NCBI RefSeq assembly: GCF_001412615.1
Contig: NZ_CP013011.1
Span: forward strand, 1,320,001-1,352,000
Source of the DNA: Pyrodictium delaneyi
GTDB taxonomy: Archaea; Thermoproteota; Thermoprotei_A; Sulfolobales; Pyrodictiaceae
Length of the DNA stretch: 32,000 nucleotides
Direction of reading: 5' to 3'
The notes beneath the pieces are model-generated. The model saw only the letters and a program-made list of their open reading frames with translations, was not told the DNA's origin and made no database searches. Position 1 is the stretch's first letter, and every line of letters begins with the position of its first letter. The translations under genes were made by a program, and so were the position numbers. Below are positions 6,314-30,051 of this stretch, piece after piece.

Positions 6314-7846
6314 CTAGGCGGCCTCCTCCACTCCCTGTACCAATGATGCGATCCTATCTGCCAGTTCGTCATGAATTTGATCTAGCCGCCTAACCTTTCT
6401 CCTGCCTCTCGGAGCAAGTGCATCCCGGCAGAAGCGGACGAGAAGTGTCTCCCCATTTTCCCTCTTGGCCTCTATCAGGTTCCTCTCAAAGCCAGCGTGA
6501 GCTATATAGTTCCTAGTATTGGTGTCAGCGCGTCTACCCTTCTCGCCTAGCCACGTCCACTCGGGGCCTGCCCGTCTCAATGGAGTAGAAGGGCTAGTGA
6601 GTTCGCTTTTTACAAGCTCCTGCTGAGCTGGTGGCAAGTATTTCTCTGCAAGACCACGTATAGTGTCCACAGGTACCTCTAAGGCGCCATAATCGCTGAT
6701 CCGTATATTGCCGCGGTACTCGAGGTATGCTCTGCATGCATAGTCTAGGAGTGCAGCAGAAGCGAGAATAGCTTTGACGTCATCGTAATCAAACCCCACA
6801 AGTCTTAGTACACGCACCCAGCTGACACCAGTACGGATAATTACAGAGGACTCTAGGCTCCTCGACACTATGTCCACGAGTTTGTGAGTCACGTATGCTA
6901 GCCATGAGCTTCCCGGTGGCTGGGCGTTCTCATACCCGTACTGTAGCAGTGCCAGAGGGAGGCCATAGTGGAGTGTTGCTGAAGCCCTCTTACCCATAGT
7001 GTATACCTGGCGCCATGCCTTCTTAGCCTCTGCAATCCCTAGCTCCTTCGCCACATAGTTTGCAGTGTCGCTGCCGAGCCCTAGCCTCTCTAGAGTAGGC
7101 TTGTCGGTTATGCGTACAGGTGTAGGATCTCTCGCCCTCGCCATGGTGTATACGAGCCTCGTCGCAGCCTTGACGCTAGTGACAGCCTCGCGGTCTACTA
7201 GGTGTATCTCTAGAGTCTGGTCAGGCACGTATGGCTCGCTATTGAATACGTCAACGTTGATCCTTACACCGGCTGAAGCAGAGAGAATCCTCGCTGCAGC
7301 CATTACGGCCCGGAAAGCGGCTAGAGGCATGTAGTTTATACCATGCGTGATGTCCAAAGCTATCTCTACTTTCCCATTCACTTCTCCACGACTGTTGATC
7401 TCCGCTAGTTCTTCAAGCGTATAGGCTATGACGCAAGAAGCATAGTCAGAGACAGGGTTGCCGAGGAAGCTACGCCACTCACACCCAATAGAGGCTTCCT
7501 GCGGCTTAAAATGGCCGTGGGCTGGACAGACTGCGATACGCACAGCTCTGCCAGCAATATCGACGCCACTATTTTCCCGAACGTATTCTACTATGGCTGT
7601 CTTGAGTTCGTCTAATGCCTCTCCGTAGCTGTCTCTCTGAATGCTCTCTAGAAACTTGTTTATCATCTTGTTGCTGCATAGTGCACTCTCGGAGATGACT
7701 ATCAGGATGCGTCTCGGGTTTAGCGCCTTAGCTAGGCACGAGAGACTCGTGGTAGACTCCTCCTCGTAGCCCATAAACACGTACTTAGCTGGTCTCCAGC
7801 TCCACGGTAACCCCCACGGCGCTATAAGAAGGTCAGTTTCACGCAT
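6314..7846 (-). CDS. csx1: Csx1-family CRISPR ancillary protein (CARF domain + HEPN RNase)
   Basis: 510 aa. LDITHGINYMP is the DxTHG signature of Csx1-type CARF proteins. C-terminal TRNYIAHAGFE fits the HEPN R-x4-H motif (RNxxxH). A sampled 60-nt line has ~48% G+C, lower than neighbouring genes. Confidence 0.8.
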   Translation of the reverse strand: MRETDLLIAPWGLPWSWRPAKYVFMGYEEESTTSLSCLAKALNPRRILIVISESALCSNKMINKFLESIQRDSYGEALDELKTAIVEYVRENSGVDIAGRAVRIAVCPAHGHFKPQEASIGCEWRSFLGNPVSDYASCVIAYTLEELAEINSRGEVNGKVEIALDITHGINYMPLAAFRAVMAAARILSASAGVRINVDVFNSEPYVPDQTLEIHLVDREAVTSVKAATRLVYTMARARDPTPVRITDKPTLERLGLGSDTANYVAKELGIAEAKKAWRQVYTMGKRASATLHYGLPLALLQYGYENAQPPGSSWLAYVTHKLVDIVSRSLESSVIIRTGVSWVRVLRLVGFDYDDVKAILASAALLDYACRAYLEYRGNIRISDYGALEVPVDTIRGLAEKYLPPAQQELVKSELTSPSTPLRRAGPEWTWLGEKGRRADTNTRNYIAHAGFERNLIEAKRENGETLLVRFCRDALAPRGRRKVRRLDQIHDELADRIASLVQGVEEAA

Positions 7847-7889
7847 AAACCATACACCACACTGCTAGCTTAGAACCAGCACTAGCATG

Positions 7890-10193
7890 TTATGGCTTCG
7901 GGCTCCTTGCAAGCCTTTCGACTCTTACCAGGAGAGGTATACGGCGCTCGGGTACTGCGAGACCTGATACGAGGGCTTGGCCTGGCTCTAGGTCTGGAAG
8001 CCTCTCAACAGTCTCCTGGCTTACCGACCCGACACCCCTCTTTATCCCCGTCAAGTCGTCGGGGTTAGTTATACGGAGGGCTATCAGGGTAGCTGCTTGG
8101 CTGAGTATCCCGGGGTCTATGAAGCCGGGCCTCTGGCTGACCAGGATCAGGCTTAGCCCCCACTTTCGGCCTTCACGTGCCACCCGTAGCAGCAGGCTCT
8201 TGGAGGCTCGGTTCTCTCCGGCAGGAGCCAGGTTGTGGGCCTCCTCGACGACTATTAGGGTGCGGCGCTGGGGGCTATAGCTTGTAGTCGATACTGTGAA
8301 GGCTTCCGCTATGAGCCTGGCTACTGCGTGGTCGGTGTCTCCGCGGCTCGGGGGAGCTAGGTGTACTATGCTGAAGCCCTCGACAAGCCTCTGAGCGATG
8401 AGCCGGTAATGTGTAGCGTCTAGATGGGGTGACACGTGGCGGGCTACGCGGCGTAGGCCGCGGGCTAGGCTCTCTACTGTGCCCTTTGCATAACCTTCAA
8501 GGGAGCTTTTGACCCGGGAGAAGCTGGCACGGAGCGAGCCTACTAGCTCTCCGCTAGCCTTCTCGGGTAGCTTTTGCGGCTTCAAGCTGGCAAGTTTTTC
8601 GTCGTGCTCTAGTGCTGTGGCTATCACCTCCCAGGGGCTTATACTCGGGTCGCTTGACCCCCTACTAGGTGCTGGGAGGTAGCTTGCGATCTTGTAGAGA
8701 AAACCTGCTAGAGGGCTCTCATCTACCCCGGGCTGGCTAAGCCTCTCCTCAGCCTCTGATGCCAGGTTATAGGCTACGATCCCTGCTATGCTGCGGCAGT
8801 CCACAAAGGGGACACCCATGCTCTTGAGCTTCCTCCAGAGCGTAATGCACGCCTCCTTCTCGGCTTCGGCGGGGCTCTTACGGCCTACTAGTACACGTCT
8901 ATACTCATCTGCAGCATCTATTACGTGCTGTAATAGAATCCTGGGCTCAACTTTGTATCGTGTAAGCATATCCATTATGTCTGCTAGGCCCTTGACTTCG
9001 TTCACTACACCTACGTCGAGGAGCCCTAAAATATCGGCTACGGTTTCCAGGGCGTCTACGAATGCCGACGACGTTGTATGCGAGAGCTCGTAGACTTCCT
9101 CGACGCTGAGCCTCGAGGGAAGCGGAGTAGCAACCACGAGCATAGGCTCGTACTTGATGAGGCTAGCTGCAGTCTCCCTGGAGACGGATTTTATGCCACC
9201 ACTTGAATCGACCAAGTATATACTGTGGCGGCCATATACTAGCCCCCGCAAGTTCCTGCCAAAGCGCTTCTCCAGGTCTCCTAGGAGGCCCACAAGACTT
9301 GCTGCATACCTCTCGTCGCTCGCCCTCTTGAACCCAACCGATGAGAGATCGTAGGGAACTAGAATGGTCTTATTCGTGTTCCTAGCCCATGTTGCCGGCA
9401 AGCTGGTATACAGTTCGGGCTGCATCACGGCGTCGAGCAGGGGTACGATGTCCTCCCTGCGGTAGGGGTAGCCTGTATACTCCCCCGCTATATCGAAGAC
9501 TATGACCCCGCCGGAGTCGCTGAACTCGTCCTTCCTCCAGGCGTACTCCGCTACGATCCTCTTCACGGTCTCCGTCTTGCCGCTGCCTGTCTGCCCGAGC
9601 ACAGCCAGGTGCATTGTAAGCCTATCGGGGTCGAGATAGACGCGTATACCGGTATTGTATGCTAGCTTGCCGAGATAGATCCCCCTGCCGCCTTCGATAC
9701 CGCGGTGCAACAACGCCTCGATGGTGCTGGTGTCTGGCTCCTCTATGATGCTGCTTGGCCGCGGCGGCTGCTCGGGGAGGACTAGTACTGGACGGCCCTT
9801 CTCGTCTTGGGCTAGTTGGCCGAGGAGGCGCAGCTTTATCTCCCGTAGGCTGTGCCATGCGACTAGGCTGCTCGTGGGCGAGAATAAGGCCTCCAGTATG
9901 CGGCGGGCATCGGCTAGGCTCGAACCCCTCTCCTCGAGTATCCTTGCTATCTCTTCTAGCCTCTTGGTGTCGAGGGCTGGTATGAGGCTCTGCTCGGACA
10001 CGTCCACCACTAGTGCTAGGTAGTGGCGCTTGTTCTGCTCGTCGCGTACCAGCGCTAGGGCGCCGTAGCGGAGTAGCGTGGTAGCCGACTTGTAGACTAC
10101 GCCGCGTAGCTCGCTGTAGGACTCGACCGAGGCTATGAAGCCTACGAAGCCCTGGCTGCCTGGAGGGGGCGTGGAGCTAGGCGGCGTAGTCAA
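7890..10193 (-). CDS. HerA/FtsK-superfamily ATPase (HerA-like, enlarged)
   Basis: 767 aa with a TTG start. N-terminal HerA-barrel-like segment (GFVGFIASVESYSELRGVVYK...YLALVVDVSE). Walker A is VLGQTGSGKT (residues 198-207, nt ~9571-9600). Walker B is LIVVEEAHNL (residues ~646-655, nt ~8241-8262). Followed by RKWGLSLILVSQRPGFIDPGILSQAATLIALRITNPDD, typical of DUF87/HerA ATPases. Confidence 0.8.
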   Translation of the reverse strand: MTTPPSSTPPPGSQGFVGFIASVESYSELRGVVYKSATTLLRYGALALVRDEQNKRHYLALVVDVSEQSLIPALDTKRLEEIARILEERGSSLADARRILEALFSPTSSLVAWHSLREIKLRLLGQLAQDEKGRPVLVLPEQPPRPSSIIEEPDTSTIEALLHRGIEGGRGIYLGKLAYNTGIRVYLDPDRLTMHLAVLGQTGSGKTETVKRIVAEYAWRKDEFSDSGGVIVFDIAGEYTGYPYRREDIVPLLDAVMQPELYTSLPATWARNTNKTILVPYDLSSVGFKRASDERYAASLVGLLGDLEKRFGRNLRGLVYGRHSIYLVDSSGGIKSVSRETAASLIKYEPMLVVATPLPSRLSVEEVYELSHTTSSAFVDALETVADILGLLDVGVVNEVKGLADIMDMLTRYKVEPRILLQHVIDAADEYRRVLVGRKSPAEAEKEACITLWRKLKSMGVPFVDCRSIAGIVAYNLASEAEERLSQPGVDESPLAGFLYKIASYLPAPSRGSSDPSISPWEVIATALEHDEKLASLKPQKLPEKASGELVGSLRASFSRVKSSLEGYAKGTVESLARGLRRVARHVSPHLDATHYRLIAQRLVEGFSIVHLAPPSRGDTDHAVARLIAEAFTVSTTSYSPQRRTLIVVEEAHNLAPAGENRASKSLLLRVAREGRKWGLSLILVSQRPGFIDPGILSQAATLIALRITNPDDLTGIKRGVGSVSQETVERLPDLEPGQALVSGLAVPERRIPLLVRVERLARSPKP

Positions 10194-10337
10194 GGCCAGC
10201 TACAGCCCCGAGCAGGGTATATGTCTCCCCTGGGCTCTAGATAAGGGTTCTAGATATGCTGCCCCAGGGCGTGGATAGCATAGCATGTCCTCCAACGCTG
10301 CTACGCCCATAGCATCGTCTCCGCTACGCTGTATGTG

Positions 10338-11939
10338 CTATGCTAGGAGGGTGCGGGTCTCCCAGCCCCTTATGAAGCTGAGGTATGGCTGACTCTTCTT
10401 GGACATGTTTTCGAGGAGTGTTTTGAGGATATGCGCCTCGTCTAGGCTAAGACGGCTATACTTGTCCACTACCAGGAGCTGCGGGGGATACCCGTAGACT
10501 GTTAGGGATGCCGAGAGGCCGGTGAAAGACAGCAGAGTGTCCCAGCCCTGCATGCCATCCACGTACTCAACCCTTAAAGCTGGCGGCACTACTAGGAGCC
10601 GCGCTGCCTCGCACGGCGAAAGGCCTGCCTCGCCTAGGCTCCCGCGTAGCTCGCTACAGCCCGGCGGGCGGCGGGGCATTATGTAGGCGTATCTTATCTT
10701 GCGTAGCTCGTCTAGGGTCCTATACGCCTCGTCGATGTGGCATCGGAGCCTCTGCTCGCCCCCACGCTCCTCGAGCACTATCTCTAGCCAGCCTGTGTCC
10801 CCGCGCCGGGGCCTCGGCCGCGTAGCAGCGTAGACCCCGCCGCCGGGGGCAGGGCTAAGGTAGTAGAAGCCGTAGACAAGGTCGCTATCACTATAGCTCG
10901 TGGGGAGTACCCCGCTACTCCGTATCGCGGCCTCTAGCTGCTCCCTGGAGGCCGTCTCTAACCCAGTACCGTAGCGGAGCTGGAGCTCCTGCTCAAGCTC
11001 TGTGAGCATCTGTTCCCACTCACGCCTAGAGTCCAGCGCATCGGCTACAGCGCCCGGGTCGTCGCAGAGACAGTCCGCCGCATAGTCTGGGCCTCCCAGA
11101 GCCTTCAACGCGTCAACAATCTTCCGTTTCAGCAGCTCGCTCATCCACCATATCTTGCTGGCTACATTCTCGCTAGCAGACCTTCTCGCTACGTCGTGGA
11201 CTATGTCGGCTACCACCGAGGCTGCTAGGATGCGGCTCCTCTCGACACTCTCTACAACGCCCCCTACGCCGCAGTCGCCGTGGGAGGCGTCCTCGGCTAG
11301 ACGGCGGAGCAGGGAGAGCACAGCAAGCCCGATGTTAGCCCGGCCGCTATCCCTGCAGAGCCTAGCATCACCGACAATGCTATTCACCGTCCCGGGACCT
11401 AGCCCGGCGTAGCCTAGGGCAGCCCGGAGCACCCGCTCCGGCACATCGTATGCCCTGGAGAGTAGATGGTGTACCTGCTGTAGGAGAGGGCCATGGCGTA
11501 CTACGATGGCGTGCTCTGCCCCTGGTAGGCCGTGGCTATCGAGGAGCCTCTGCCATCCCTCGCATAGTGTGAGCAGCATGGCGAGTTCGACTAGGTAGCT
11601 TATGCCCTGCCTAGCTCTATCACTCCCCGCCATGGTGAAGATTGAGGGCCCTAGCCTCCCGTCGTCGTGCACGGGTGCTGGGTGGAGAACACGCTCCTCA
11701 ACTCTGCCTCCGCTGCTAGCCCTAGCGAGTACAGCTAGCTTGACCGCGAAGGCTTCTCCGCCCGGCTGCCTGACAGTCCTCGAGCCGGCGTCCACGTAGA
11801 AGAACGCCGTATCGGCGTCGAGGAGCCTCTCGGGGCCGGGCAGGCTCTCCCCTGGGAGCCAGAAGCCGCCGCTGCCGTAGCGGGCTAGGGCGGCGAAGAG
11901 TAGCTGGTAGGGCTCCAGCGTCAACGTATCCCTGCCCAC
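10338..11939 (-). CDS. NurA-like nuclease (putative partner of the HerA-like ATPase)
   Basis: 533 aa with a GTG start. N-terminal FFYVDAGSRTV resembles the NurA catalytic (V/I)DGS motif. C-terminal VYGYPPQLLVVDKYSRL resembles the NurA GYP...(A)D motif. Position immediately upstream of a HerA-like gene fits the HerA-NurA pairing. The call rests on short motifs only. Confidence 0.55.
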   Translation of the reverse strand: MGRDTLTLEPYQLLFAALARYGSGGFWLPGESLPGPERLLDADTAFFYVDAGSRTVRQPGGEAFAVKLAVLARASSGGRVEERVLHPAPVHDDGRLGPSIFTMAGSDRARQGISYLVELAMLLTLCEGWQRLLDSHGLPGAEHAIVVRHGPLLQQVHHLLSRAYDVPERVLRAALGYAGLGPGTVNSIVGDARLCRDSGRANIGLAVLSLLRRLAEDASHGDCGVGGVVESVERSRILAASVVADIVHDVARRSASENVASKIWWMSELLKRKIVDALKALGGPDYAADCLCDDPGAVADALDSRREWEQMLTELEQELQLRYGTGLETASREQLEAAIRSSGVLPTSYSDSDLVYGFYYLSPAPGGGVYAATRPRPRRGDTGWLEIVLEERGGEQRLRCHIDEAYRTLDELRKIRYAYIMPRRPPGCSELRGSLGEAGLSPCEAARLLVVPPALRVEYVDGMQGWDTLLSFTGLSASLTVYGYPPQLLVVDKYSRLSLDEAHILKTLLENMSKKSQPYLSFIRGWETRTLLA

Positions 11940-12005
11940 TATACTGCATAGAATCGCTACCGATATAGCTAGCGCGCTGCCGCTTCAACACGGGGTGCCC
12001 CCTTA

Positions 12006-12980
12006 TTGCCTGAGCCTCTATACAGCAGCTGCGAGGCCCACCTAGCCACAGTCGGGACAAGCCTGCTAGCCAACACGCTCCGCCTAGTACGCCAGGCCCT
12101 GGCCTCCGGCTCCACCCAGGCAAGGCTGGCCACGCCCCTGGGCAGCGTCACGGTGGACTTCAGCCAGCTCGGCGGCCCCGGGGCCCTCAGGGAGGTGGAG
12201 GAGTGTCTTGCCAGCTGCGCCGACCCAGCCCGTATCGACGAGGAGAAGTGTAGGCGCTGCATGTCGGGCGACACGCCGGCCAGGAGAGCGGTCGAGCTAG
12301 TCCTATACGCTGAGCCGTACACGGCCTCGGCGGAGCTTAACGCGGCCCGGTGGAGGCTTGGGAGCCCCCCGCGCTGCCCCGGCGGCGTGTTCTTCGTCCT
12401 CTACGCCTCCGACACCATTGCCGGGCAGCTAGCCGCGGAGATCCTAAGAGGCTACCTGGAGGACATCGGCTGCCGGGCCCGGGTAGAGGTCGTCAAGGGC
12501 CTCGGCCAGGAGCTGTGGGAAGGCATCGCTGAGCTAGCCCGGAGGATAATCTGCCACACAGACTGCCTAGCAGCCCGGGGTTGCCGGGTCTACGTAAACC
12601 CGACTGGCGGCTTCAAGCCCGAGTCAGCGGCGGCGGTGCTGGCAGCGGGCCTCGCCGGGGCGACAGCAGCCTACTACGTCCACGAGGCCATGAGGGAGCC
12701 CGTGTTCATACCGTTCCCACCGCTGGTAGTAGATGCGCGGCAGGCCTCCAGGCTCCTCCACGGAGCTGCGGCGCTCGAGACACGGAGCAGCGTCTGCCAG
12801 GGCGAGGTAGACGACCAGCTACTCGCGCTAGCAGTGCAGGCGGGCGCCGCCAGGCCCATGCCCAGGCAGCCCGGCTGCTACATGGTGGACGAGGAGAGGG
12901 CCCGGGAGCTCACGAGGCTACTCCGCGTAGTCCTCGGCGCCGGTGGCTGCGAGCCAGGCTGCCCAGTCCCCGGGCAGTAG
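12006..12980 (+). CDS. CARF-domain protein (Csm6/APE2256-like CARF) with short uncharacterised C-terminal tail
   Basis: 324 aa with a TTG start (the first start after the in-frame stop at 11970). HLATVGTSLLAN at the N-terminus, ASAELNA, and VYVNPTGGFKPES are hallmark CARF (APE2256/Csm6-type) motifs. The ~85-aa tail has no clear effector motif. Confidence 0.7.
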   Translation: MPEPLYSSCEAHLATVGTSLLANTLRLVRQALASGSTQARLATPLGSVTVDFSQLGGPGALREVEECLASCADPARIDEEKCRRCMSGDTPARRAVELVLYAEPYTASAELNAARWRLGSPPRCPGGVFFVLYASDTIAGQLAAEILRGYLEDIGCRARVEVVKGLGQELWEGIAELARRIICHTDCLAARGCRVYVNPTGGFKPESAAAVLAAGLAGATAAYYVHEAMREPVFIPFPPLVVDARQASRLLHGAAALETRSSVCQGEVDDQLLALAVQAGAARPMPRQPGCYMVDEERARELTRLLRVVLGAGGCEPGCPVPGQ

Positions 12981-13004
12981 AGGGGCGACGAGGGCGCGGC
13001 TGCC

Positions 13005-14711
13005 GTGGGCTGGGAGCAGCCCGCCGGGGCCCTCACCGGGGCGCTCCGGGGCTGCAGCCGGGTATACCTCGCCAACGCTGGCACAAGCCCCGAGGCCGTC
13101 GCCTCCGCGCTAGCCAGGCTAGCGGAGACCGGGCTACTCGACGAGACATGCATCATCCTGCTCACAACCCCGCAGAGCGCCACGGTGGCTAGGAAGGCCT
13201 CGGAGATCCTCAGCAAGGCAATGGACTTCGACTCTCTCAGGGCGCGCATAATTGTGGACGCCGACGCCGGGGAGGGGAGCGTCTACACCGGGATATTCGA
13301 CGACCCGTCCACAGCCATCGAGTCGCTACGCAGGTTGATGGCGGCTATACTGAGGGAGGCTAGGGAGGGGGATATACGGCTCATAGGTGCGGACATAACC
13401 GGCGGCACGAAGCTCATGGCGGGTGCGCTCGCGACGCTAACAGTCGCTGCAGCCATGTCCACGGGGGAGAAGAGGGCCGAAGACCAGGCGGGTAGAAGCG
13501 TCTACATATCGTATGCGCCGGGCGAGGCCTTCAGCCGCCCCGGGCTCCGGCAGAACGCCCCGGCGGGGTGGTGGGGAGGCAGAAGCTACCCCCACATACC
13601 GAGGCCCCTGCAGAAGCTAATACTGGTCGATGCAGCCCTTGTAGCCGGGAAGCCAGCCAGCGGGGGCGTTGTCCGCTACGCGTGCATGCCTGGGCTACTG
13701 AGGCTCCCGGAGCGCCTAGGCCTAGTACTCGACCCGGACGCGGGGCTTAGCCCCCTCCTAGACGCGGTCGCGTGGTCCACCCGGGTCGTCAACGCCGCTA
13801 CCTGTGGAGAGGCAGCCATAACCCTCGCCATATCGGGTAGGCGGTGGAGAATAGCCACCATAGACTGGCAGAAGCCAGCCCTAGAGCTGGATACCCCCAG
13901 GCTGCTGTGGGACGAGGGCTGGGTCAATATAGCTCACAGCTACGCTGATGCTCTCGGCGTCAATGACGACAGGCAGGTGGAGCAGCTCCCCAAGTGCTTC
14001 TCGAGGCTAGCCAGGTTCGCGGTAGCCCGCCTCGCGGTACGGGACGCCAGCGGGGACTATAGCGGTCTAAGGGGGAGGCCATTCTCGGAGGCGGTGATCC
14101 GCGCCGCCCAGGATGGCAGAGGCATCGTCCTGGACACTAATGCGCTGTACAACGGTGCTCATAACAGCCTCCTAGAAGCCGAGACCATAGCCGCTCTTAG
14201 GCCGGTGCAGCCACAGCCCCGCAGCAACCCGCTACACGTGCCGTCATGCGCGCTCCGAGAGCTACGCAACAGGCTGATGGAGGAGGCTAAGCAGAAGCCA
14301 GGCCTGGCAAGCCCATGCTTCGCTTCAACACTACTAGCCCACCAGGCGGCTAGCGGGCTCCCCGTAGTGGAGACGCCCGGCGAGCAGCGCTGCGACTACA
14401 CAGTCTACGAGATGGCCAGGAAGGAGCAGTACATAGTAGCCACGTCAGACACTGGAATAGCAAACCTGGCAAAAGCCACCGGCGCACCGCTACTACACCT
14501 CCACCCGAGTAGCCCAGCGCACCCAGACCAGGAGAAGCCCTGGACACAGCACCAGGCAGCAGCCGCAGCAGCCCAGCTCATAGCATACCTCGCCATGATC
14601 ATTCCCTGCAGCAAGGGCAGCGTGCTGGTAGAAGGCGACGCCAGAACAGTAGCCCTATGCCGCCAAGACGGCTACATAGCCGCAAAGGAGGAGAACAAGC
14701 ACAGCAAATAG
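13005..14711 (+). CDS. CARF-PIN fusion protein
   Basis: 568 aa with a GTG start. N-terminal CARF-like motifs VYLANAGTSPEAV (residues ~20-32) and IGADITGGTKLMAG (~127-140). C-terminal PIN-like motifs GIVLDTNALYNG (D377), ALRELRN, and YIVATSDTGIANLAKATGAPLL (D482). About 200 unassigned residues lie between the two domains, and a ~65-aa tail follows. Confidence 0.7.
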   Translation: MGWEQPAGALTGALRGCSRVYLANAGTSPEAVASALARLAETGLLDETCIILLTTPQSATVARKASEILSKAMDFDSLRARIIVDADAGEGSVYTGIFDDPSTAIESLRRLMAAILREAREGDIRLIGADITGGTKLMAGALATLTVAAAMSTGEKRAEDQAGRSVYISYAPGEAFSRPGLRQNAPAGWWGGRSYPHIPRPLQKLILVDAALVAGKPASGGVVRYACMPGLLRLPERLGLVLDPDAGLSPLLDAVAWSTRVVNAATCGEAAITLAISGRRWRIATIDWQKPALELDTPRLLWDEGWVNIAHSYADALGVNDDRQVEQLPKCFSRLARFAVARLAVRDASGDYSGLRGRPFSEAVIRAAQDGRGIVLDTNALYNGAHNSLLEAETIAALRPVQPQPRSNPLHVPSCALRELRNRLMEEAKQKPGLASPCFASTLLAHQAASGLPVVETPGEQRCDYTVYEMARKEQYIVATSDTGIANLAKATGAPLLHLHPSSPAHPDQEKPWTQHQAAAAAAQLIAYLAMIIPCSKGSVLVEGDARTVALCRQDGYIAAKEENKHSK

Positions 14712-14737
14712 CACCAGCAACTAGAGGGGCGCCAAGG

Positions 14738-15214
14738 ATGCCCCGGCTAGTAGCGCTCATCGGCGCTAGCCCTGGGGTGCTACACACCACCCTCTGCCTC
14801 CTACGCCGGAAAGGCATACAGGTGGACGAGGTAGTAGTGGTTGCCACACGCCACGAATGGGGCACCGAGGCGATAGAGATCGCCAGGAGCTGCCCCTGCC
14901 CCGGAGAAGAAGCACCACCAGCACCACCAGCTACACGCCTCCTACTACTCCCCTCCACCGACATAACAGGCCCCCAGGACATCACCCAGCTGAGAAAAAC
15001 ACTATCCAGGCTCCTCGGCCCAGACACGATACTAGACGTCACAGGCGGCCGGAAACTCATGAGCATAGCAGCAGCCCTCGAAGCCCTAAGAAAAGGCGCA
15101 ACCATCACAGCCTCGATAATACCCATACACGAGTACGACCGGATACGCAGAGCAACCAAGCCCTGCGACAAAACAATCCAAAACCCCAGCACAGCACACC
15201 TAACAAGACTCTAA
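14738..15214 (+). CDS. Stand-alone mini-CARF protein (NE0113/Csx14-like)
   Basis: 158 aa from ATG 14738. The track start at 14657 overlaps the previous gene and adds an implausible Arg-rich extension. MPRLVALIGASPGVLHTTLCLL and ILDVTGGRKLMSIAAALEAL match the two CARF signature elements of small NE0113-type proteins. The coding strand is strongly A+C-rich. Confidence 0.6.
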   Translation: MPRLVALIGASPGVLHTTLCLLRRKGIQVDEVVVVATRHEWGTEAIEIARSCPCPGEEAPPAPPATRLLLLPSTDITGPQDITQLRKTLSRLLGPDTILDVTGGRKLMSIAAALEALRKGATITASIIPIHEYDRIRRATKPCDKTIQNPSTAHLTRL

Positions 15215-15286
15215 GAACAACTCTAAGAACACAAAAAGACACCTAGAACCACCCTCCACCGCACACAACGGCCACAAATTACACTC

Positions 15287-15797
15287 CATTCAGTTCTATT
15301 TGCCATGATTCAGAGCGTGAACAGCGGCCTCGACCGCTACGTCGGCTAGCAGGACTTTCAGTTCTATTTGTTATGATTCCTAGTAACTGAAGTCGGGTAC
15401 GAGGAGGCACAAATGATACGTGTCTTTCAGTTCTATTTGTTATGATTCATGGTGATGTTGAGGAAGCTAAGGCACTCCTAGAAGCCATAGTCTTTCAGTT
15501 CTATTTGTTATGATTCCTTCGGGAGTTGGCGCTCCTCACGCCCGAGGAGCCCCTCATTCACCTTTCAGTTCTATTTGTTATGATTCAGAATATGTAAGTA
15601 CACCATTTGTCAGGACTACAGAGTCATCTTTCAGTTCTATTTGTTATGATTCTTGAAGGCAGCTAGTGATTGGTGGCTATCCAACGTATTAACGAAAACG
15701 TTGACTTTCAGTTCTATTTGTTATGATTCCACCGGCGGCTAAGAGGGAGCAGCCCAAGGAAGAGGCTAAAGCCTTTCAGTTCTATTTGTTATGATTC
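15287..15797 (-). CRISPR. CRISPR array 1 (8 repeats, 7 spacers), transcribed on the minus strand
   Basis: The 25-nt repeat CTTTCAGTTCTATTTGTTATGATTC on the plus strand starts at 15287*, 15355, 15424, 15492, 15562, 15628, 15705 and 15773 (* = 3 mismatches). Spacers are 43, 44, 43, 45, 41, 52 and 43 nt. The degenerate copy lies at the left end and the conserved leader at the right, so the functional orientation is GAATCATAACAAATAGAACTGAAAG (GAAAG 3' end, predicted 8-nt handle ACUGAAAG). Confidence 0.95.
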
Positions 15798-15834
15798 TGC
15801 ATTTTCTCTGTCTAGTGTAGTTGTTGTGGTGCAT

Positions 15835-15844
15835 GTATTTATTT
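15835..15844 (-). promoter_or_regulatory. Putative TATA box for pre-crRNA of array 1
   Basis: The minus strand reads AAATAAATAC, 38-47 nt upstream of the first repeat. The same AATAAATAC occurs at the equivalent position of leader 2. Confidence 0.45.
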
Positions 15845-16030
15845 CTTTGTCTGGGTTTATAGTGCTTCTTCCTTTGCGTGTTAGAGGTGTCTGCATCCTA
15901 TCCATGCCGGTGGATAGTGTGGTCATCGCTGATGGTTCCATCGATGGCATTGTTTCTACGTGTTTAGCGTTTTTCTAACAAGTTCCATGGTGGAGAGGAT
16001 ATTTATGTGTTGTCCTCGGTGCCTGGGGCT

Positions 16031-16147: not shown

Positions 16148-16163
16148 CCTTGTGTTTGTTGTG

Positions 16164-16784
16164 TTAGGTGTTTGTTTTGTGGTAGAGTGTTAGCCATGGT
16201 GTTGGTAGGATTAGGTTTGCTCGCTGGGTTAGGAGTTGTAGTCGTTGGAGTGTCCGGGTGTGTCTTCGGATTGTCCGCTCTGAGAGGTTGAGGCTTGCTG
16301 CTAGCTGGGGTATTGTTGCCGGGCCGTTGGCGTGTATGTGGTTGGCTATTCTGCGCTGGATTCCGGGTAGGCTGTTTGTCAGTATCGTGTGGACTGTGTG
16401 GAGTGGTATGGTTGTCTCTGTTGTCCGGATTGTTGCTGTTTTTTCTGTCCGTGCTGTGTGGATGAGGAGGGCTAGGGCTATGGCTAGGGTTGTTTCTGGC
16501 GTGGTGTGCTCGATGATCGCGGTTGCCGTGGTCTTGGTGTCTAGTGTGTCGAGTATCTGTGCTATGGCTGTTGCTGGCTCGTGGGGGTTTATGGCTACTA
16601 GTCTTGGCTGGGGGTGGCCTGCTAGCTCTGCCAGGGTGGCTACCTGCTGTAGCGTTGCCTGCATCGGGATGGTTACGGGCTGTTCTGCTACTAGGACTAT
16701 CTCGGCTCCTCCGGTGGCTGTTAGTAGTGCTTTGAGGGCGGGTGTGGGCGTGGGCGTTAGTGGCGCTATGACGGTGTGGCGCGT
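16164..16784 (-). CDS. csa3: Csa3-family regulator (CARF + winged HTH), start codon anomalous
   Basis: The track ORF is 16164-16664 (166 aa), with a C-terminal wHTH (IANHIHANGPATIPQLAASLNLSERTIRRHTRTLQRLQLL). The frame stays open upstream to the TAG at 16800-16802. Those 45 codons (..TRHTVIAPLTPTPTPALKALLTATGGAEIVLVAEQPVTIP) look like the first beta-alpha-beta of Csa3 CARF domains. No ATG/GTG/TTG occurs there. An ACG at 16784-16782 lies 7 nt after a GGAGGGG Shine-Dalgarno-like run. Confidence 0.65.
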   Translation of the reverse strand, partial: TRHTVIAPLTPTPTPALKALLTATGGAEIVLVAEQPVTIPMQATLQQVATLAELAGHPQPRLVAINPHEPATAIAQILDTLDTKTTATAIIEHTTPETTLAIALALLIHTARTEKTATIRTTETTIPLHTVHTILTNSLPGIQRRIANHIHANGPATIPQLAASLNLSERTIRRHTRTLQRLQLLTQRANLILPTPWLTLYHKTNT

Positions 16785-17009
16785 AAGCCTTCCCCTCCTC
16801 TACGTGTATCCTAGTGCTGTATGTATTGTGTTTTACGCTTCTGCGGTCCATCTATCCTTGTTGGCTACGTGCTCGTCGCCTATGGTCCCTGTTGCCTGCT
16901 CCGGGCTTTGCGGGGTGCCTATGGGTGTTGGGTCCCGTGCCGCCGGGGCAGGGTGGTGCTAGATAAGTCACGGTATTACCTTATATCGGGTGGGTTCTGG
17001 GCTGCCTTG

Positions 17010-17903
17010 ATGCTCTCGCCCAGCAGTGTCGGGAGGCTGCTCCGGCGGCTCCACGCGCTGAGGAGCCGCGACCCTGTCCCCGAGGAGCTGAGGGGCTGGA
17101 GCTGGTGGAGCCCGCCGCTGCGGCCCCGGGCCCACTTAGGCCTAGGCGTGAGCGAGGCGGCGATACGCTGGTGCCCTAGCCGCCGCGACCTCTACCTCCG
17201 CCGGGTCCGCGGCCTAGAGCCGCCGCCTAGCAACGGCATGCTCCGCGGGAGAGTCGTGCACGAGGCATTCCGCCGCAGCGCCGTGGACGTGGCTAGGCTC
17301 CACGTGCTAGGCCGAGAGCCCCCAGGCATCGTGGCGGAGCTCGTCGCGGATGCCGAGGAGGCTGCGAGGGGCATAGCTGAGGAAGCAGGCGCCCCGGGGC
17401 TCGAGGACCTAGCAGCCAGGGCCTACACCCGCTTCGTGTTCCTCTGGAGCGGCTGGGTCGAGGAGACAGGGCAGCCCCCATGGTACACCGAGTACGCTAT
17501 CGACGGCTCGCTACTGGGGCTCTCCCCGAGGCTCCGGGTCAACGCGCTCGGGGTAGGCATAGTGGTCGAGGTCAAGCTCGGGGGCTGGAGAGACGACTAC
17601 CCCGCCGCGCTGGCGGGCTACGCGCTCGCCCTAGAGGCTAGCCACGAGATCCCCGTAGACTATGGCCTCGTGCTCCTCGTCTCCGGCGACGCCTCCAGGG
17701 TCGAGGCACACCCCGTCTACCTCGGCGCCGACGAGAGGATAGCCTTCATCGAGGCCAGGGACGAGGCGATAGAGATGTTCCTCAGCGGCCAGGACCCTGG
17801 CACGCCCTCTGAGTGCAGCCGGGGCTGCCCCTTCGCCCGCCTCTGTAGCCCCACAGCGCCGGCGCGAGGCGGCAGCGAGGCAGCAGGGGAGGCGGTGGCT
17901 TGA
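17010..17903 (+). CDS. csa1: Csa1-type Cas4-family nuclease (PD-(D/E)xK with Cys cluster)
   Basis: 297 aa from ATG 17010. TTATAT at ~16980-16986 lies ~25 nt upstream, a leaderless spacing. The track start at 16821 adds 63 Cys/Gly/Val-rich codons from the G+T-rich strand. Motifs: IRWCPSRRDLYL (N-terminal Cys), GIVVEVKLG (D/E-x-K), and C-terminal CSRGCPFARLC. Confidence 0.75.
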   Translation: MLSPSSVGRLLRRLHALRSRDPVPEELRGWSWWSPPLRPRAHLGLGVSEAAIRWCPSRRDLYLRRVRGLEPPPSNGMLRGRVVHEAFRRSAVDVARLHVLGREPPGIVAELVADAEEAARGIAEEAGAPGLEDLAARAYTRFVFLWSGWVEETGQPPWYTEYAIDGSLLGLSPRLRVNALGVGIVVEVKLGGWRDDYPAALAGYALALEASHEIPVDYGLVLLVSGDASRVEAHPVYLGADERIAFIEARDEAIEMFLSGQDPGTPSECSRGCPFARLCSPTAPARGGSEAAGEAVA

Positions 17904-18889
17904 CCCGCGTCCTCGTAGTGGCGGCGCACGGCGCCAGGATACGGGTCCACCGCCGCAGCCTCGTGGTGGAGAGCAACGGGGAGCGGATGGTAGCGCCCCT
18001 CCACGAGGTAGACCGCGTAGTCGTGGCCACGAGCGGGGTCTCGGTGACGAGCAGCGCTATCCGGCTACTAGCCAGGAGCGGGGTGGGCATAGTCTTCCTC
18101 GACGCCCACGGGGAACCCATAGTCTCGCTGGAGCCTCCCTGGATAAACGCGGCAGCAGAGACACGGCTCGCCCAGTACCGGGCTAGCGTGGAGCGGCCCC
18201 TCAACCTCGCCAGGGCCATGGTCGCGGCTAAGCTGGAGAACCAAGCTGGGTTCCTCCGCAGCCTAGCCCGGCGGACCAGCGCAGCCTGGCTACGCGAGGA
18301 GGCGGCCGCGGTCGAGGAGCGGATGCTCCGCGTCTACTCGGCGGGCTCGGCCGAGGAGATACGGGGCCTCGAGGCCCAGGCCGCCCGCCGCTACTGGGGC
18401 TCCCTAGCCAGGCTTCTCCCCCAGAGCCTGGGCTTCCAGGGCCGCGACCACGGGAGCCGGGACCCGGTGAACACTGTCCTCAACTACCTCTACGGCGTGC
18501 TCTACGCCGAGGTCTTCCAGGCCCTCGTGGTCCACGGGCTAGACCCCTACGTCGGGTTCCTCCACGCCCTGCGGCCTGGGAGCCCCGCACTGGTATATGA
18601 CTACGCCGAGATGTTCCGCGTCAGCGCCGTCGACAGCCTAGTCTACACGATGCTCGCGAGCCGGGACGCCCCGGGCATCAGGGTAGACCCTGAGACCGGG
18701 CTGCTAGCCCGCGAGACCCGGGCAGAGCTAGTGAAGCGCATGTACGAGTGGCTGCGCCGCCGCGCCGTGGATTCGAGGGGCCAAGCCGAGCCCCTGGAGA
18801 GGCACATCAGGCTCTATGCCCGCCGGCTAGCCCAGAGCCTCCGCGCCGGTACAGACTACCAGGGCTTCGTAGAGGCCTGGAGGCCGTGA
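17900..18889 (+). CDS. cas1: Cas1 integrase
   Basis: 329 aa with a TTG start overlapping the csa1 stop. NTVLNYLYGVLYAEVFQALVVHGLDPYVGFLHA...PALVYDYAEMFR is the conserved Cas1 C-terminal catalytic region. Confidence 0.9.
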   Translation: MTRVLVVAAHGARIRVHRRSLVVESNGERMVAPLHEVDRVVVATSGVSVTSSAIRLLARSGVGIVFLDAHGEPIVSLEPPWINAAAETRLAQYRASVERPLNLARAMVAAKLENQAGFLRSLARRTSAAWLREEAAAVEERMLRVYSAGSAEEIRGLEAQAARRYWGSLARLLPQSLGFQGRDHGSRDPVNTVLNYLYGVLYAEVFQALVVHGLDPYVGFLHALRPGSPALVYDYAEMFRVSAVDSLVYTMLASRDAPGIRVDPETGLLARETRAELVKRMYEWLRRRAVDSRGQAEPLERHIRLYARRLAQSLRAGTDYQGFVEAWRP

Positions 18890-19179
18890 TCATACTAGTA
18901 GCCTACGATATAAGCGACACGGGCCGCCGCGACCGGGCAGCCAAGCTGCTACAGAGCATGGGGCTGTCGCGTCTCCAGCGGAGCCTCTACGCGGGCCGAG
19001 GCGGCGCAGCCAAGGCCAGGGACATAGCCCGGGCTCTCGAGCGCATCCTGGACCCCGAGACCGACGTAGCAGATATCCTCGTCCTCCCAGACCACGTGTG
19101 GAGCCGCCGCATAGAGGTCGGCAATGGCAGAGCAAGGGTGCCAGGGCGTGCACATCCACCCGGAGTACACCTCGCCTAG
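18886..19179 (+). CDS. cas2: Cas2
   Basis: 97 aa from GTG 18886, with a GTGA overlap on the cas1 stop. VIILVAYDISDTGRRDRAAKLLQSMGLSRLQRSLYAG is the classic Cas2 N-terminus. The track start at 18748 lies inside cas1. Confidence 0.85.
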   Translation: MIILVAYDISDTGRRDRAAKLLQSMGLSRLQRSLYAGRGGAAKARDIARALERILDPETDVADILVLPDHVWSRRIEVGNGRARVPGRAHPPGVHLA

Positions 19180-19735
19180 ACTAGTCACCGCCACTCTCGT
19201 AAAGCTCCACGAGTGGTGCCCACTCCTCGCATGGCTAGCCGCTAACACCCTCCCCCGCATAGCCCCGACACCCTCCATGAGGGAGGGGAGGCGCAGCCAC
19301 ACCAGGGAGGAGCTAAGACGCGTAGCAGAGGAACTAGGCCTAAGACGGCCAGCAGTACAGGTAGCCCTAGCAAGCACACAATACGGCGCCACCGGCACCA
19401 TAGACATAATCGACAAGGAGACAGGGACGATAATAGAGGTCAAAGCAACGGCCAGGAGGAAGCCACACCGCAGCCACCTAGCCCAGCTAGCAGTCTACAC
19501 CCTCCTAGCAGCCGAGAACAACCTCAAACCAAGACGAGCAGCAATAGCGACACCAGAGCCCAGGATAATAGCAGAGCTCCCCGCCGACACCTACACCCTA
19601 CAATGGGCCAGAAACCTCATACAGAGAACCAGGAGGACAATAGAAAGCCCAATCCCACCCCTAGTAACACAGCCCAGAGAGAAATGCCGCTACTGCACAC
19701 ACCGCCACACCTGCCCATACCCAAACCTAGACTAA
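19124..19735 (+). CDS. cas4: Cas4 (RecB-like nuclease with 4-Cys cluster)
   Basis: 203 aa. Motifs: HEWCPLLAW (first Cys), GTIDIIDKETGTIIEVK (D...EVK), HLAQLAVY (QxxxY), CRYCTHRHTC (CxxCx5C). Start uncertain: ATG 19124 overlaps cas2 by 56 nt, and the alternative is GTG ~19148. The 3' two-thirds is strongly A+C-rich. Confidence 0.85.
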   Translation: MAEQGCQGVHIHPEYTSPRLVTATLVKLHEWCPLLAWLAANTLPRIAPTPSMREGRRSHTREELRRVAEELGLRRPAVQVALASTQYGATGTIDIIDKETGTIIEVKATARRKPHRSHLAQLAVYTLLAAENNLKPRRAAIATPEPRIIAELPADTYTLQWARNLIQRTRRTIESPIPPLVTQPREKCRYCTHRHTCPYPNLD

Positions 19736-19752
19736 ACCAGTAAACCACCAGG

Positions 19753-19869: not shown

Positions 19870-20046
19870 AGCCTCAGGCACCGAGGACAAAACATAAATA
19901 CAACCACAATCATCAAATAGTTTAGAAAAGCATTATGCATGCAGAAACAATACTATCGATGAGACCATCAGTAATGATCACACTATCCCCCGGCATAGCT
20001 ACAATGTAGACACCCGAGACACCAGCTAGAAGACTCTCAAGAAAAC

Positions 20047-20091: not shown

Positions 20092-20665
20092 GAATCATAA
20101 CAAATAGAACTGAAAGACCGCTCCCCGCCCCCTACGCAGATTTCTCGATTAGCTCGCCCACGCGAATCATAACAAATAGAACTGAAAGACTTCACCGCTG
20201 TCTCTCACTTCAACCTCTGACAGTAGATGGAATCATAACAAATAGAACTGAAAGCTCCACGTAGAGCTTCTTTACTAAGAACGACTTCCCGGCCCGTCTG
20301 AATCATAACAAATAGAACTGAAAGACCTTAACGACGCGAAAACCATGCCTGAACACCTTATCGGATACGAATCATAACAAATAGAACTGAAAGTATCTCC
20401 CTTCCTTGATGTACTCTAACATTTTTTCGCTAATGGTGAATCATAACAAATAGAACTGAAAGCTGTCAAACTTCAGTGCCTCTGGTCTAGCAAAAAACGC
20501 TAGCCTGAATCATAACAAATAGAACTGAAAGTACTCGCCGTCCAAGTCCTTGATGAACGCCACTGAGTCCAGGTGAATCATAACAAATAGAACTGAAAGA
20601 TTAGGTAGCCCGGAGCCGGGAGAAACCAATGGCTGCTGTAGAATCATAACAAATAGAACTGGAAG
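20092..20665 (+). CRISPR. CRISPR array 2 (9 repeats, 8 spacers), transcribed on the plus strand
   Basis: GAATCATAACAAATAGAACTGAAAG starts at 20092, 20164, 20230, 20300, 20369, 20438, 20507, 20575 and 20641* (* the terminal copy ends GGAAG, 1 mismatch). Spacers are 47, 41, 45, 44, 44, 44, 43 and 41 nt. Confidence 0.95.
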
Positions 20666-20683
20666 GCGTTAACAATTCTGGGC

Positions 20684-23256: not shown

Positions 23257-23334
23257 ACACCCGGGCATAGAGGGCCAGTACCTAAGACGTTTACACGGAG
23301 AGCCCCCAGAGGGTGCCCCCTCGTCTTGGGCGGC

Positions 23335-23982
23335 ATGCTTCTCGCTGCGAGCCTGGGGTTCGACGAGCGGCCAGTTACCCACGCCATGGCCGATACGCGG
23401 CCCCGCTGTGTAGCCCTCTTCGCGCCCCGTGTAGGCGGGGAGACACGGCGGCTCGATGACGCCCTGCTGCTCGTGAGGAGGTTCGCCGAGGCCCTCGGAG
23501 CGAGGCTGGAGGTCTACTGGCTCGACGTGGGCCGCGCGGGGCTCGAGGAGCTAGTCTACATGGTCAAGGAGCACGTCCGCAGACTCGTCAGAGAGTGCAG
23601 CGTCGACCGGGTGGTGTTCGCCCCGAGGGCCGGGCTACGGGTACTCACGGTAGTCCTAACAGTGGCCGCTATGGGGCTCGCCCTCGAGCCCGGCCAGAGA
23701 GTCACACTGCTCCTACGAGAGGAGAGCATCGGCGCCGTCTACGAGACCGACGCGGCGTCGCTAGCCCCGGTGGAGCTAGGCGAGGAGGAGAGGAGAGTAC
23801 TCAGACTCCTAGCCAAGCATACCCTGGAAGGCCGCGGCCTCGGCGTACGGGAGGCAGCCGAGCTACTCGGCATACCACGGTCCACCGTGCACCGGCGGCT
23901 CCAGGCACTAGCCGAGAAGGGGCTCGCCTACAGGGCCGAGGACGGCTACAGGGCGACACCCCGCGGCATAGCCTCAGCATAG
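23335..23982 (+). CDS. Csa3-like regulator (CARF + winged HTH), second copy
   Basis: 215 aa from ATG 23335. MLLAASLGFDERPVTHAM resembles the Csa3 N-terminal strand-helix (xVTxGF(N/D)E). C-terminal EEERRVLRLLAKHTLEGRGLGVREAAELLGIPRSTVHRRLQALAEKGLAY is a wHTH. Convergent with the cmr operon. Confidence 0.7.
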   Translation: MLLAASLGFDERPVTHAMADTRPRCVALFAPRVGGETRRLDDALLLVRRFAEALGARLEVYWLDVGRAGLEELVYMVKEHVRRLVRECSVDRVVFAPRAGLRVLTVVLTVAAMGLALEPGQRVTLLLREESIGAVYETDAASLAPVELGEEERRVLRLLAKHTLEGRGLGVREAAELLGIPRSTVHRRLQALAEKGLAYRAEDGYRATPRGIASA

Positions 23983-25338: not shown

Positions 25339-25352
25339 GCCGCGGCCACCCC

Positions 25353-29084: not shown

Positions 29085-29102
29085 ATGCGGGGCGACAGAG
29101 AA

Positions 29103-30029: not shown

Positions 30030-30051
30030 CGTGAACTCACCTCTTAGTGTC

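Follow-up and report, generated by a model that had tools for sequence, protein, structure and literature searches.

A 32,000-nt window of the Pyrodictium delaneyi genome (the whole stretch of DNA analysed; all coordinates are positions within it) carries, between 6314 and 15214, an island of six genes in which NurA-like, HerA-like and Csx1 genes on one strand are divergent from three CARF genes on the other. A first-pass annotation had described this island as a hub responsive to cyclic oligoadenylate (cOA), with four CARF sensors packed around a HerA/NurA-type ATPase–nuclease pair. The six open reading frames (ORFs), their lengths and spacings and the CARF motifs quoted for them exactly match that description in the ORF list and translations, and the gaps calculated from the ORF coordinates are 144, 43 and 66 nt. 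Homology supports the assignment of the region as the accessory island of the P. delaneyi type III-B (Cmr) CRISPR system, with a predicted role in cOA signalling, adjoining a Cmr module that appears to be cyclase-competent. The hub description thus held for the island and for the presence of the pair, but not all of the CARF genes are likely to encode effectors. The anatomy resembles the standard crenarchaeal toolkit for cyclic tetra-adenylate (cA4; Cmr, Csx1, CARF-PIN, two Crn1 and two Csa3) together with a lineage-specific NurA/HerA paralogue pair. Gene content, folds, conservation of catalytic residues, synteny and clade distribution were established computationally. The reading that we develop from them, for and against which we see roughly equal grounds, is that of a cA4 signalling island with a DNA-end-degrading motor coupled to the signal, most likely through a small CARF protein.

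The HerA/NurA-like pair and its CARF neighbours

The 533-aa product of Pyrde_1342 had been called NurA-like, a call that sequence profiles failed to reproduce but that structure prediction upheld. The protein had no family match in Pfam, NCBIfam or PADLOC, and phmmer and hmmsearch gave none among PDB sequences. The Pfam NurA profile (PF09376) was matched by none of 34 family members, and the protein matched none of the 5,027 PADLOC models, among which the presence of a NurA model was unchecked. Among 1.84 billion representative proteins scanned exhaustively with HMMER, only 44 relatives were recovered; a word-indexed homologue search, even when given a 34-sequence profile, found nothing beyond the protein itself and one relative at 80%. 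An AlphaFold2 (AF2) model built on an alignment of 34 relatives had a predicted local distance difference test score (pLDDT) of 91.6 and a predicted TM-score (pTM) of 0.91. When this model was compared with the PDB using Foldseek, ranks 1–10 were all NurA (E 6.9e-7 to 6e-4, probability 0.98–1.00), including S. solfataricus 2YGK (E = 6.9e-7), P. furiosus 3TAI, 3TAL and 3TAZ and the T. kodakarensis HerA-NurA chain 9X1L-N, followed by RNase H and then by RAG and Argonaute PIWI domains. TM-scores to NurA, normalised to the target, were 0.30–0.55, the value for 2YGK being 0.55. The model identifies the 533-aa protein as a NurA-fold, RNase H-like protein, and earlier censuses probably under-counted a NurA-fold family that is missed by sequence profiles.

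The protein is ~200 aa longer than S. solfataricus (Sso) NurA and features a helical insertion at ~237–361. Five acidic residues are invariant in the family: D50 in the first strand, E118 in the following helix, E230, D351 and D492 in the last helix. Position 149, the residue that closes the next core strand within the motif V-R/K-H-G-P-L, is His in 29 of 34 members and Asp in the other 5, and the last helix is preceded by a loop, L479-x-x-Y482-x-Y484-P485, whose Y482 is found in 32/34. In Sso NurA, D58, E116 and D133 are catalytic, K202 and Y298 lie near the active site, and I295 and F300 form a HerA-binding patch (Blackwood et al., PMC3326311). Mapped by secondary-structure order and motif pattern rather than by residue-level superposition, D50, E118 and position 149 are consistent with the D58/E116/D133 layout, and the Y482 loop resembles the I295/Y298/F300 patch. 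The His/Asp alternation at the mapped third metal-ligand position, together with the invariant D492, has the look of a conserved active site.

For the 767-aa product of Pyrde_1341, the earlier HerA-like call was borne out by domain, motif and structure matches. DUF87 (PF01935) matches at 1.6e-17 (64.8 bits against a cut-off of 23.2), PDB HerA chains are matched by phmmer at 3.5e-26, and Walker A (GQTGSGKT at residue 200, including K206), Walker B (LIVVEE at residue 646, including E650/E651) and further Arg residues are invariant in the family. The AF2 model (pLDDT 87.5) has HerA-type ATPase chains as its best 50 Foldseek matches (one of them TdpA), the first of which, at 1.7e-21, is the HerA chain of the T. 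kodakarensis HerA-NurA complex. Matches to NCBIfam HerA models range from ~1e-34 to 1e-24, the best with 118 bits, far below the equivalog cut-offs of 800–970, and only the N- and C-terminal ATPase segments align. The Walker motifs are separated by ~445 residues, and the Walker A-to-B stretch of canonical HerA is much shorter; the protein is best described as belonging to a distinct subfamily with a long Walker A-to-B stretch. Residues ~390–570 are the least conserved segment. The insertion between the Walker motifs was considered and rejected as a marker of the CARF-linked and CARF-free clades described below: it occurs in both and is simply the most variable segment, and the comparison is not decisive.

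Homology predicts that the pair works as an ATP-driven machine for processing DNA ends. Canonical HerA-NurA (2YGK/4D2I of S. solfataricus and 9X1L-P of T. kodakarensis; PMC12977600, PMC3326311) provides the best structural match for both proteins, and the T. kodakarensis complex degrades both strands of double-stranded DNA in an ATP-dependent manner (PMC12977600). The P. delaneyi pair shares with the canonical system adjacent co-evolving genes, intact Walker A and B motifs, an acidic Asp/Glu pair and a Tyr loop before the last helix. It differs in its lack of mre11-rad50 linkage, in undetectable NurA sequence similarity, in a third catalytic position that is mostly His, and in the length of its HerA (767 aa against 500–590 aa). 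The bacterial Sir2-HerA/Nezha and DUF4297-HerA systems (PMC11291478, PMC11514289), which are close PDB neighbours of the 767-aa protein, are built as the same kind of two-gene module of a HerA hexamer and an effector enzyme, whereas the P. delaneyi module is archaeal, has a NurA-fold partner and is tied to CARF genes and CRISPR.

Four CARF sensors had been proposed for the island. All four proteins do carry CARF domains, but two of them are stand-alone homologues of Crn1 ring nucleases with their catalytic residues kept. The 324-aa protein is of the long type (Sso1393/Sis0811, CARF plus winged helix-turn-helix (HTH)), with matches to PF09651 (1.3e-28, 100 bits against a cut-off of 24.8), TIGR02619 (1.3e-31) and PADLOC CARF7 (4.5e-138), and its closest solved relatives are Sis0811 (7pq2, 1.7e-20) and Sso1393 (3qyf, 1.7e-19). 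Sis0811 depends on its residues S12 and K169 (PMC8643638); the second of these is aligned with the Lys in NPTGGFK, and GTSLLAN reproduces the S12...N16 spacing of Sis0811, a correspondence mapped by motif outside the phmmer alignment.

The second is of the short type (Sso2081/Sis0455). Its start is most likely Met28, at position 14738, giving a protein of 158 aa, because Met28 aligns with Met1 of Sso2081 and with all homologues; with this start, the ORF therefore does not overlap the 568-aa gene. It matches NF040581 (8.4e-24), PADLOC CARF_m13 (3e-47) and the structure of Sso2081 (7ygh, 6.6e-19 with alignment). Structure-guided mutagenesis of Sso2081 identified G9-T10-S11, D75, G104-R105-K106 and Y133 as key residues, with T10A tolerated (PMC10018336). 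These map to G-A-S, D, G-R-K and Y in the P. delaneyi protein, so that S11, D75, R105, K106 and Y133, like S12 and K169 in the long form, are kept; E17 is replaced by Thr. The short-form motifs are retained across eight pair-linked homologues, one of which (at locus L013, see below) has Ser replaced by Thr and lacks the Tyr corresponding to Y133.

Both forms have significant sequence matches to solved Crn1 structures but fall below the NCBIfam equivalog cut-offs (84 against 125 bits for the short form, 75 against 600 for the long form). The short form aligns with Sso2081 to approximately residue 141, and its tail is not alignable to the Sso2081 C-terminus that holds R172; it also differs from Crn1 in being genomically tied to the NurA/HerA pair. 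Since both stand-alone proteins keep the catalytic residues, their probable role is that of a cA4 off-switch or timer and not that of an effector, and the plus-strand operon would consist of a long Crn1-type gene, a CARF-PIN gene and a short Crn1-type gene, not of three effectors. The pair-linked Crn1-like proteins (this one and its homologues in L002–L015) also have three family-specific conserved cysteines, CPCP...PCxKT, not seen in the alignable part of Sso2081 (residues 1–141); in these hyperthermophiles the cysteines might make up a metal site or be joined in a disulfide. PADLOC CARF-class profiles match the Pyrodictium CARF proteins end to end, and these proteins appear to have been catalogued already.

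The remaining two island proteins are putative effectors. Csx1, as first called, exceeds the curated cut-offs (PF22230 8.8e-33, PF09455 6.3e-7; TIGR01897 133.1 bits against 110), matches PADLOC Csx1/Csm6 at 3e-51 and has its HEPN R-x4-H motif; it is an ordinary member of the Csx1/Csm6 CARF-HEPN RNases, with no notable difference from them, and is predicted to be a cA4-activated RNase. The 568-aa protein, first called CARF plus PIN, matches PADLOC profiles for two CARF-PIN effector classes of Makarova 2020 (CARF_m3--CARF_PIN 1e-9, CARF_m12--CARF_PIN 2.2e-4) and for CARF5 (1.1e-5). Its PIN domain is only probable: the C-terminal 199 aa match Pfam PIN below threshold, at E = 0.2 (12.7 bits against a cut-off of 23.6), and Fcf1 only at 0.03, and the protein had no match in the PDB sequence search. 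It is a predicted cOA-activated RNase.

Table 1. Features of the P. delaneyi window, the accessory island first
Feature	Position	Strand	Description
Csx1	6314..7846	-	510 aa; CARF (CARF9 class) and HEPN; R-x4-H motif RNYIAH at residue 445
HerA-like ATPase, Pyrde_1341	7890..10193	-	767 aa; N-terminal barrel and RecA-like core
NurA-fold nuclease-like protein, Pyrde_1342	10338..11939	-	533 aa; structure-based call
Intergenic region between the divergent NurA-like and CARF7 genes	11940..12005		66 nt; TATA-like elements tatact and gatata, read from the sequence
Long Crn1-type protein, CARF7/APE2256, Sso1393/Sis0811 type	12006..12980	+	324 aa; motifs GTSLLAN/NPTGGFK
CARF protein with probable PIN-like nuclease	13005..14711	+	568 aa; motifs NAGTSPE/DITGGTK; LDTN...TSD
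Short Crn1-type (Sso2081-like) stand-alone CARF protein	14738..15214	+	ORF opens at 14657 (185 aa); motifs GASPGV/DVTGGRK
CRISPR array 1	15286..15800		8 repeats, core CTTTCAGTTCTATTTGTTATGATTC; leader on right side
Csa3-like protein (CARF3 and winged HTH), fifth CARF protein	16164..16664	-	PADLOC CARF3 3.2e-9, Csa3 3.6e-8; Pfam HTH_24 4.2e-6; Csa3_N 0.0048 (weak)
Adaptation module csa1-cas1-cas2-cas4	16821..19735	+	TIGR01896 1.8e-66, TIGR00287 8.2e-74, TIGR00372 3.6e-21, Cas2 4.2e-23
CRISPR array 2	20093..20666		9 repeats, inverted relative to array 1; leader on left side
Csa3 (CARF3 and HTH), sixth CARF protein	23326..23982	+	PADLOC CARF3 2.3e-69, Csa3 1.8e-17; TIGR01884 2e-7
Type III-B (Cmr) genes cmr3, cas10/cmr2, cmr6, cmr1	24277..31917	-	Profile matches
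cas10/cmr2	25353..29084	-	1243 aa; HD at residue 20; cyclase motif YAGGDDLV (GGDD) at residue 912

Distribution and synteny of the pair

Loci encoding the pair were collected from GTDB genomes, from contigs encoding HerA homologues and from JGI metagenomes, which added one new locus, and were annotated by BLASTP against the window proteins, precomputed Pfam matches, a Crn1 hidden Markov model (HMM) and a repeat finder; individual loci are cited by L numbers. The family is small, and every named member comes from Desulfurococcales-type archaea. The HerA-like gene directly follows the NurA-like gene on the same strand in all 18 distinct loci, the window included. HerA and NurA distances are strongly correlated (Mantel r = 0.93), and the two neighbour-joining trees agree in their main groupings, which comprise two clades. 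Clade A contains the window, L001–L006, L010, L015 and L016, with L013 as a deep branch nearby and with L018, found after the trees were built, placed by identity alone (HerA 46%). Its sister, clade B, contains L007, L008, L009, L011, L012 and L014.

A CARF gene lies beside the pair in each of the ten informative clade A loci, nine times a short Crn1-like gene and once a Csa3 gene. The short Crn1-like gene is divergent from the pair by 56–82 nt in L002 and L003, directly upstream of it in L013, and directly downstream in L004, L006, L010 and L015, where stop and start overlap or are separated by no more than 26 nt; L018 has the downstream arrangement too, with a start of the gene that is placed only approximately. 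In L016, which is near-identical to L005, a CRISPR array, Csa3 and type I-A genes lie beside the pair instead of the Crn1-like gene. CRISPR arrays or cas genes are found in the window, L002, L005/L016, L006, L010, L013 and L018, and type III genes are visible in the window, L010, L013 and L018; L002 combines arrays with homologues of Csx1, CARF7 and CARF-PIN. In L003, L004 and L015, a triad of Crn1, NurA and HerA genes sits amid housekeeping genes, with no cas gene in the 8–10 kb visible on one side, and the pair is therefore linked to the CARF gene itself and not merely to a cas locus. Between the triad and the type III module of L010 (13539–14723), a 394-aa protein with faint AAA_15/AAA_21/DUF2813 similarity and a 175-aa partner are encoded, and these two genes may be another small defence module.

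None of the six clade B loci has a CARF gene, a cas gene or an array within 10 kb or the available flank (L014 ends shortly after HerA), and the Crn1 HMM detected no degenerate Crn1 copy in these CARF-free loci. The difference between ten of ten and none of six corresponds to a Fisher p of ~1.2e-4, calculated by hand and uncorrected for phylogeny. Enrichment of the pair beside CARF genes, for which a neighbourhood census had been proposed in the first-pass annotation, is thus a property of clade A but not of the family in general. Among the CARF genes, the conserved neighbour is specifically the small Crn1-like gene, and not all four together. L003, which has the Crn1-like gene, and L012, which lacks it, share an upstream LPG-synthase TM protein and a TatD DNase (1484–4176 in L003, 3753–5460 in L012), which hints that the pair occupies an orthologous chromosomal site at which the Crn1-like gene was gained or lost. 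The uncharacterised genes upstream of the pair in L012 and L003 have no similarity to one another.

Proposed coupling to cA4 signalling and alternative explanations

The association of HerA and NurA with CRISPR, credited in the first-pass annotation to computational surveys, is indeed documented. Bernick et al. (2012) reported that a nurA-csm6-herA cluster (csm6 being of the APE2256 family) adjoins CRISPR arrays across Thermoproteales, and they proposed that it takes part in adaptation (PMC3396285). Shah et al. (2018) gave the label 'Type III coevolved' to their clusters 57 (HerA) and 58 (NurA) and noted earlier reports in other crenarchaea and aigarchaea (PMC6546367), and Altae-Tran et al. 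(2023) included NurA and HerA among putative CRISPR auxiliary genes (PMC10910872). HerA/NurA pairs are unmentioned in the 2025 CRISPR classification paper. In the P. delaneyi island, co-evolving NurA-type and HerA-type genes are paired in the same way beside arrays or type III genes and are likewise accompanied by a stand-alone APE2256/CARF gene, and its interpretation is largely anticipated by this comparative genomics.

There are also clear differences. The Thermoproteales NurA paralogues match Pfam NurA (E 1e-7 to 1e-16, PMC3396285 Table A2), whereas the Pyrodictium family does not in any of its 34 members, and the conserved CARF partner is a short Sso2081-like Crn1 (CARF_m13) instead of CARF7. 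The HerA protein has an unusually long Walker A-to-B stretch, belongs to a Desulfurococcales-type lineage and matches the PADLOC model for 'HerA Type III coevolved' (PDLC01055) only weakly, at 2.6e-16, being out-scored by 11 other HerA models (3.8e-40). What is new here is that a divergent NurA family is recognised by structure only, that the pair falls into one clade with linked CARF genes and one without, and that the conserved partner is the Sso2081-like CARF protein. The locus thereby adds a NurA-fold family invisible to profiles, a natural contrast between CARF-linked and CARF-free pairs, and a specific candidate for coupling in the small Sso2081-like CARF protein.

In the mechanism that we favour, Cmr bound to target RNA would synthesise cOA, presumably cA4, through Cas10, in which the GGDD motif is intact as had been claimed. 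cA4 would activate the two CARF-fused nucleases, Csx1 (HEPN) and CARF-PIN, and the long and short stand-alone Crn1-type proteins would bind and cleave it, ending the signal. By analogy with canonical HerA-NurA, a hexameric motor would feed DNA ends into a dimeric nuclease, in a putative HerA6-NurA2 assembly, and linear DNA would be destroyed. The clade of this pair would be tied to cA4 signalling most likely via the short Crn1-like CARF protein, which would act as both a cA4 sensor and a self-limiting timer of the motor-nuclease. Functional coupling through a CARF protein is favoured because the pair has no recognisable cOA sensor and the one gene that constantly accompanies the clade A pair encodes a small stand-alone CARF protein, and because an independent Thermoproteales NurA/HerA lineage is likewise tied to a stand-alone CARF protein of a different class.

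A more specific form of this mechanism, which we offer tentatively and consider doubtful, makes the short Crn1-like protein a dissociable cA4-sensing and timing subunit of a three-part effector composed of a CARF dimer, a HerA-like hexamer and a NurA-fold dimer. It is similarly a minority expectation on our part that cA4 binding to such an effector would license processive ATP-driven DNA degradation, which the ring-nuclease activity of the CARF protein itself would then end. If true, no type III ancillary effector before it would have had its motor-nuclease controlled in trans by a separate, stand-alone CARF protein, and the HerA/NurA–CRISPR association reported in 2012 would be explained. Coupling in any form would mean that type III signalling controls processive DNA destruction or prespacer production via a trans-acting CARF sensor; if there is none, the pair simply adds another defence or repair module to an island, and the four CARF proteins are an ordinary set of effectors and ring nucleases.

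Several points weigh against coupling through a CARF protein. No CARF or SAVED cOA-binding module was recognisable in the HerA-like or NurA-like protein among the listed Foldseek matches, although a novel sensor in the insertions is possible, and the Crn1-like proteins, with their full ring-nuclease motifs, could just as well be plain off-switches. The short Crn1-like gene of the window is not adjacent to the pair but lies 2.8 kb away, in the divergent operon. Because the CARF trait follows clade, the pattern may reflect only one or two evolutionary events. Crn1-like distances correlate with those of HerA and NurA (Mantel r = 0.83 and 0.88, p ~3e-4), which shows co-inheritance as a module, but any vertically inherited genes would give the same result. 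The clade B pair exists without any CARF or CRISPR context, and together with the synteny between L003 and L012 this means that the pair may primarily be a chromosomal DNA-metabolism system. Most members have His at the third catalytic position of NurA, so that nuclease activity is an assumption. Finally, and in line with the first-pass annotation, no biochemistry of a CRISPR-linked HerA/NurA pair was found in a full-text literature search, most subscription papers being outside its coverage. Two readings are live besides CARF coupling: in one, the CARF protein is a plain ring nuclease while the pair serves adaptation or repair, and the other is mere co-location in an island.

As an adaptation helper, the pair would resect or fragment invader DNA, or repair the array, to supply prespacers to Csa1-Cas1-Cas2-Cas4; cOA would act on it only transcriptionally via Csa3 or not at all, and the ring nucleases would serve Csx1 and CARF-PIN only. 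We think this unlikely, though the surroundings speak for it: the adaptation module and two arrays lie within 1–5 kb of the island, two Csa3-like regulators are encoded, and in L016/L005 the pair adjoins an array, Csa3 and type I-A genes, whereas type III genes were not seen there. It also agrees with the role in adaptation proposed for the Thermoproteales cluster and with the finding of Liu et al. (2017) that the CARF regulator Csa3a binds the nurA-herA promoters of S. islandicus and up-regulates these genes during spacer acquisition, for which a RecBCD-like role in prespacer supply was proposed (PMC5587795). However, it leaves unexplained why the conserved and often translationally coupled neighbour is a Crn1-like CARF gene and not cas1 or cas2, even where no cas gene is nearby, and no convincing regulatory motif links the promoter of the pair to the csa1 or leader regions.

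There are two other alternatives. Defence genes generally cluster in islands, HerA ATPases are common motors of stand-alone antiphage systems, among them PDB neighbours of the 767-aa protein, and the sister clade occurs in housekeeping contexts devoid of CARF and cas genes; the pair could accordingly be a DNA-repair paralogue that acts autonomously, or a HerA-based defence system complete in itself, like the bacterial Sir2-HerA or DUF4297-HerA systems. It would then merely share a defence island with CARF proteins that serve Cmr and have no mechanistic tie to it. This strikes us as quite improbable given the difference in CARF adjacency between the clades (uncorrected for phylogeny, as noted), the stop/start overlaps with the Crn1-like gene, the triads kept amid housekeeping genes away from cas loci and the independent linkage of CARF7, NurA and HerA in Thermoproteales. 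Least probable, to the point of being an outside chance, is that replacement of the third Asp by His has left a catalytically dead scaffold, with the pair acting as an ATP-driven translocase or remodeller (displacing proteins or R-loops, for example) and not as a nuclease. The His at position 149 in 29/34 members, the absence of a match to any NurA sequence profile and the modest target-normalised TM-scores to NurA point that way, whereas the invariance of D50, E118, E230, D351 and D492 and the restriction of position 149 to His or Asp are the pattern expected of a conserved metal site under selection.

CRISPR context and other features of the window

The part of the window left of ~6000 encodes A/V-type ATPase subunits and both a Nudix and an SPFH protein. 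On its right, the island is followed by CRISPR array 1, a Csa3-like gene, csa1-cas1-cas2-cas4, the inverted array 2, a second Csa3 gene and cmr3-cas10-cmr6-cmr1, in this order (Table 1). The two Csa3-type proteins and the four of the island make up the six CARF proteins that had been counted in the window. Both CRISPR arrays were found by a repeat search and a k-mer script, and both were missed by Tandem Repeats Finder. They are mutually inverted and have long leader-like stretches in common on their inner sides (15795–16170 and 19730–20095), facing the csa3-like/csa1-cas1-cas2-cas4 block, and would therefore be transcribed outward from the adaptation module. Cas10/Cmr2, at 1243 aa, is more than twice as long as the Cmr2 profile (510 positions), with split profile matches and large unmatched segments, and contains a second GGDD at residue 491 that is probably fortuitous.

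The 66-nt region between the divergent NurA-like and CARF7 genes is a putative promoter region, as its TATA-like elements suggest. An 11-mer, GGGTGCCCCCT, is common to this region (~11990–12001) and to the region upstream of csa3 (23230–23330). It is a candidate Csa3 site, although such a match is compatible with chance in ~65% GC DNA across many comparisons and is probably no more than that. It was the sole match found: a comparison of the promoters of the pair and of csa1, the leaders and the region upstream of csa3 gave no convincing common regulatory motif.

Two ORFs that overlap supported CARF genes, 12581–13192 (+) and 14599–15192 (-), were rejected as genes; their translations are rich in Arg, Pro and Gly and have no homologues, and they lie in high-GC DNA. 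The Csa3-like protein encoded at 16164–16664 is very Thr-rich, and the stretch 16144–16851 has an extreme strand composition (GC skew +0.31, AT skew -0.52). A 235-aa ORF that overlaps the Csa3-like gene in another frame is probably not a gene, its translation being a low-complexity string of His, Pro, Thr and Asn. A 149-aa protein encoded at 21892–22341 (-) has no significant family match, its best indication being a very weak similarity to PIN_5 (E = 0.11). It is 58% identical to the product of an ORF at 3919–4365 of L002, a Pyrodictiaceae locus, and the end of the same contig (3–242) contains a second, weaker partial match with 34% identity over 56 aa.

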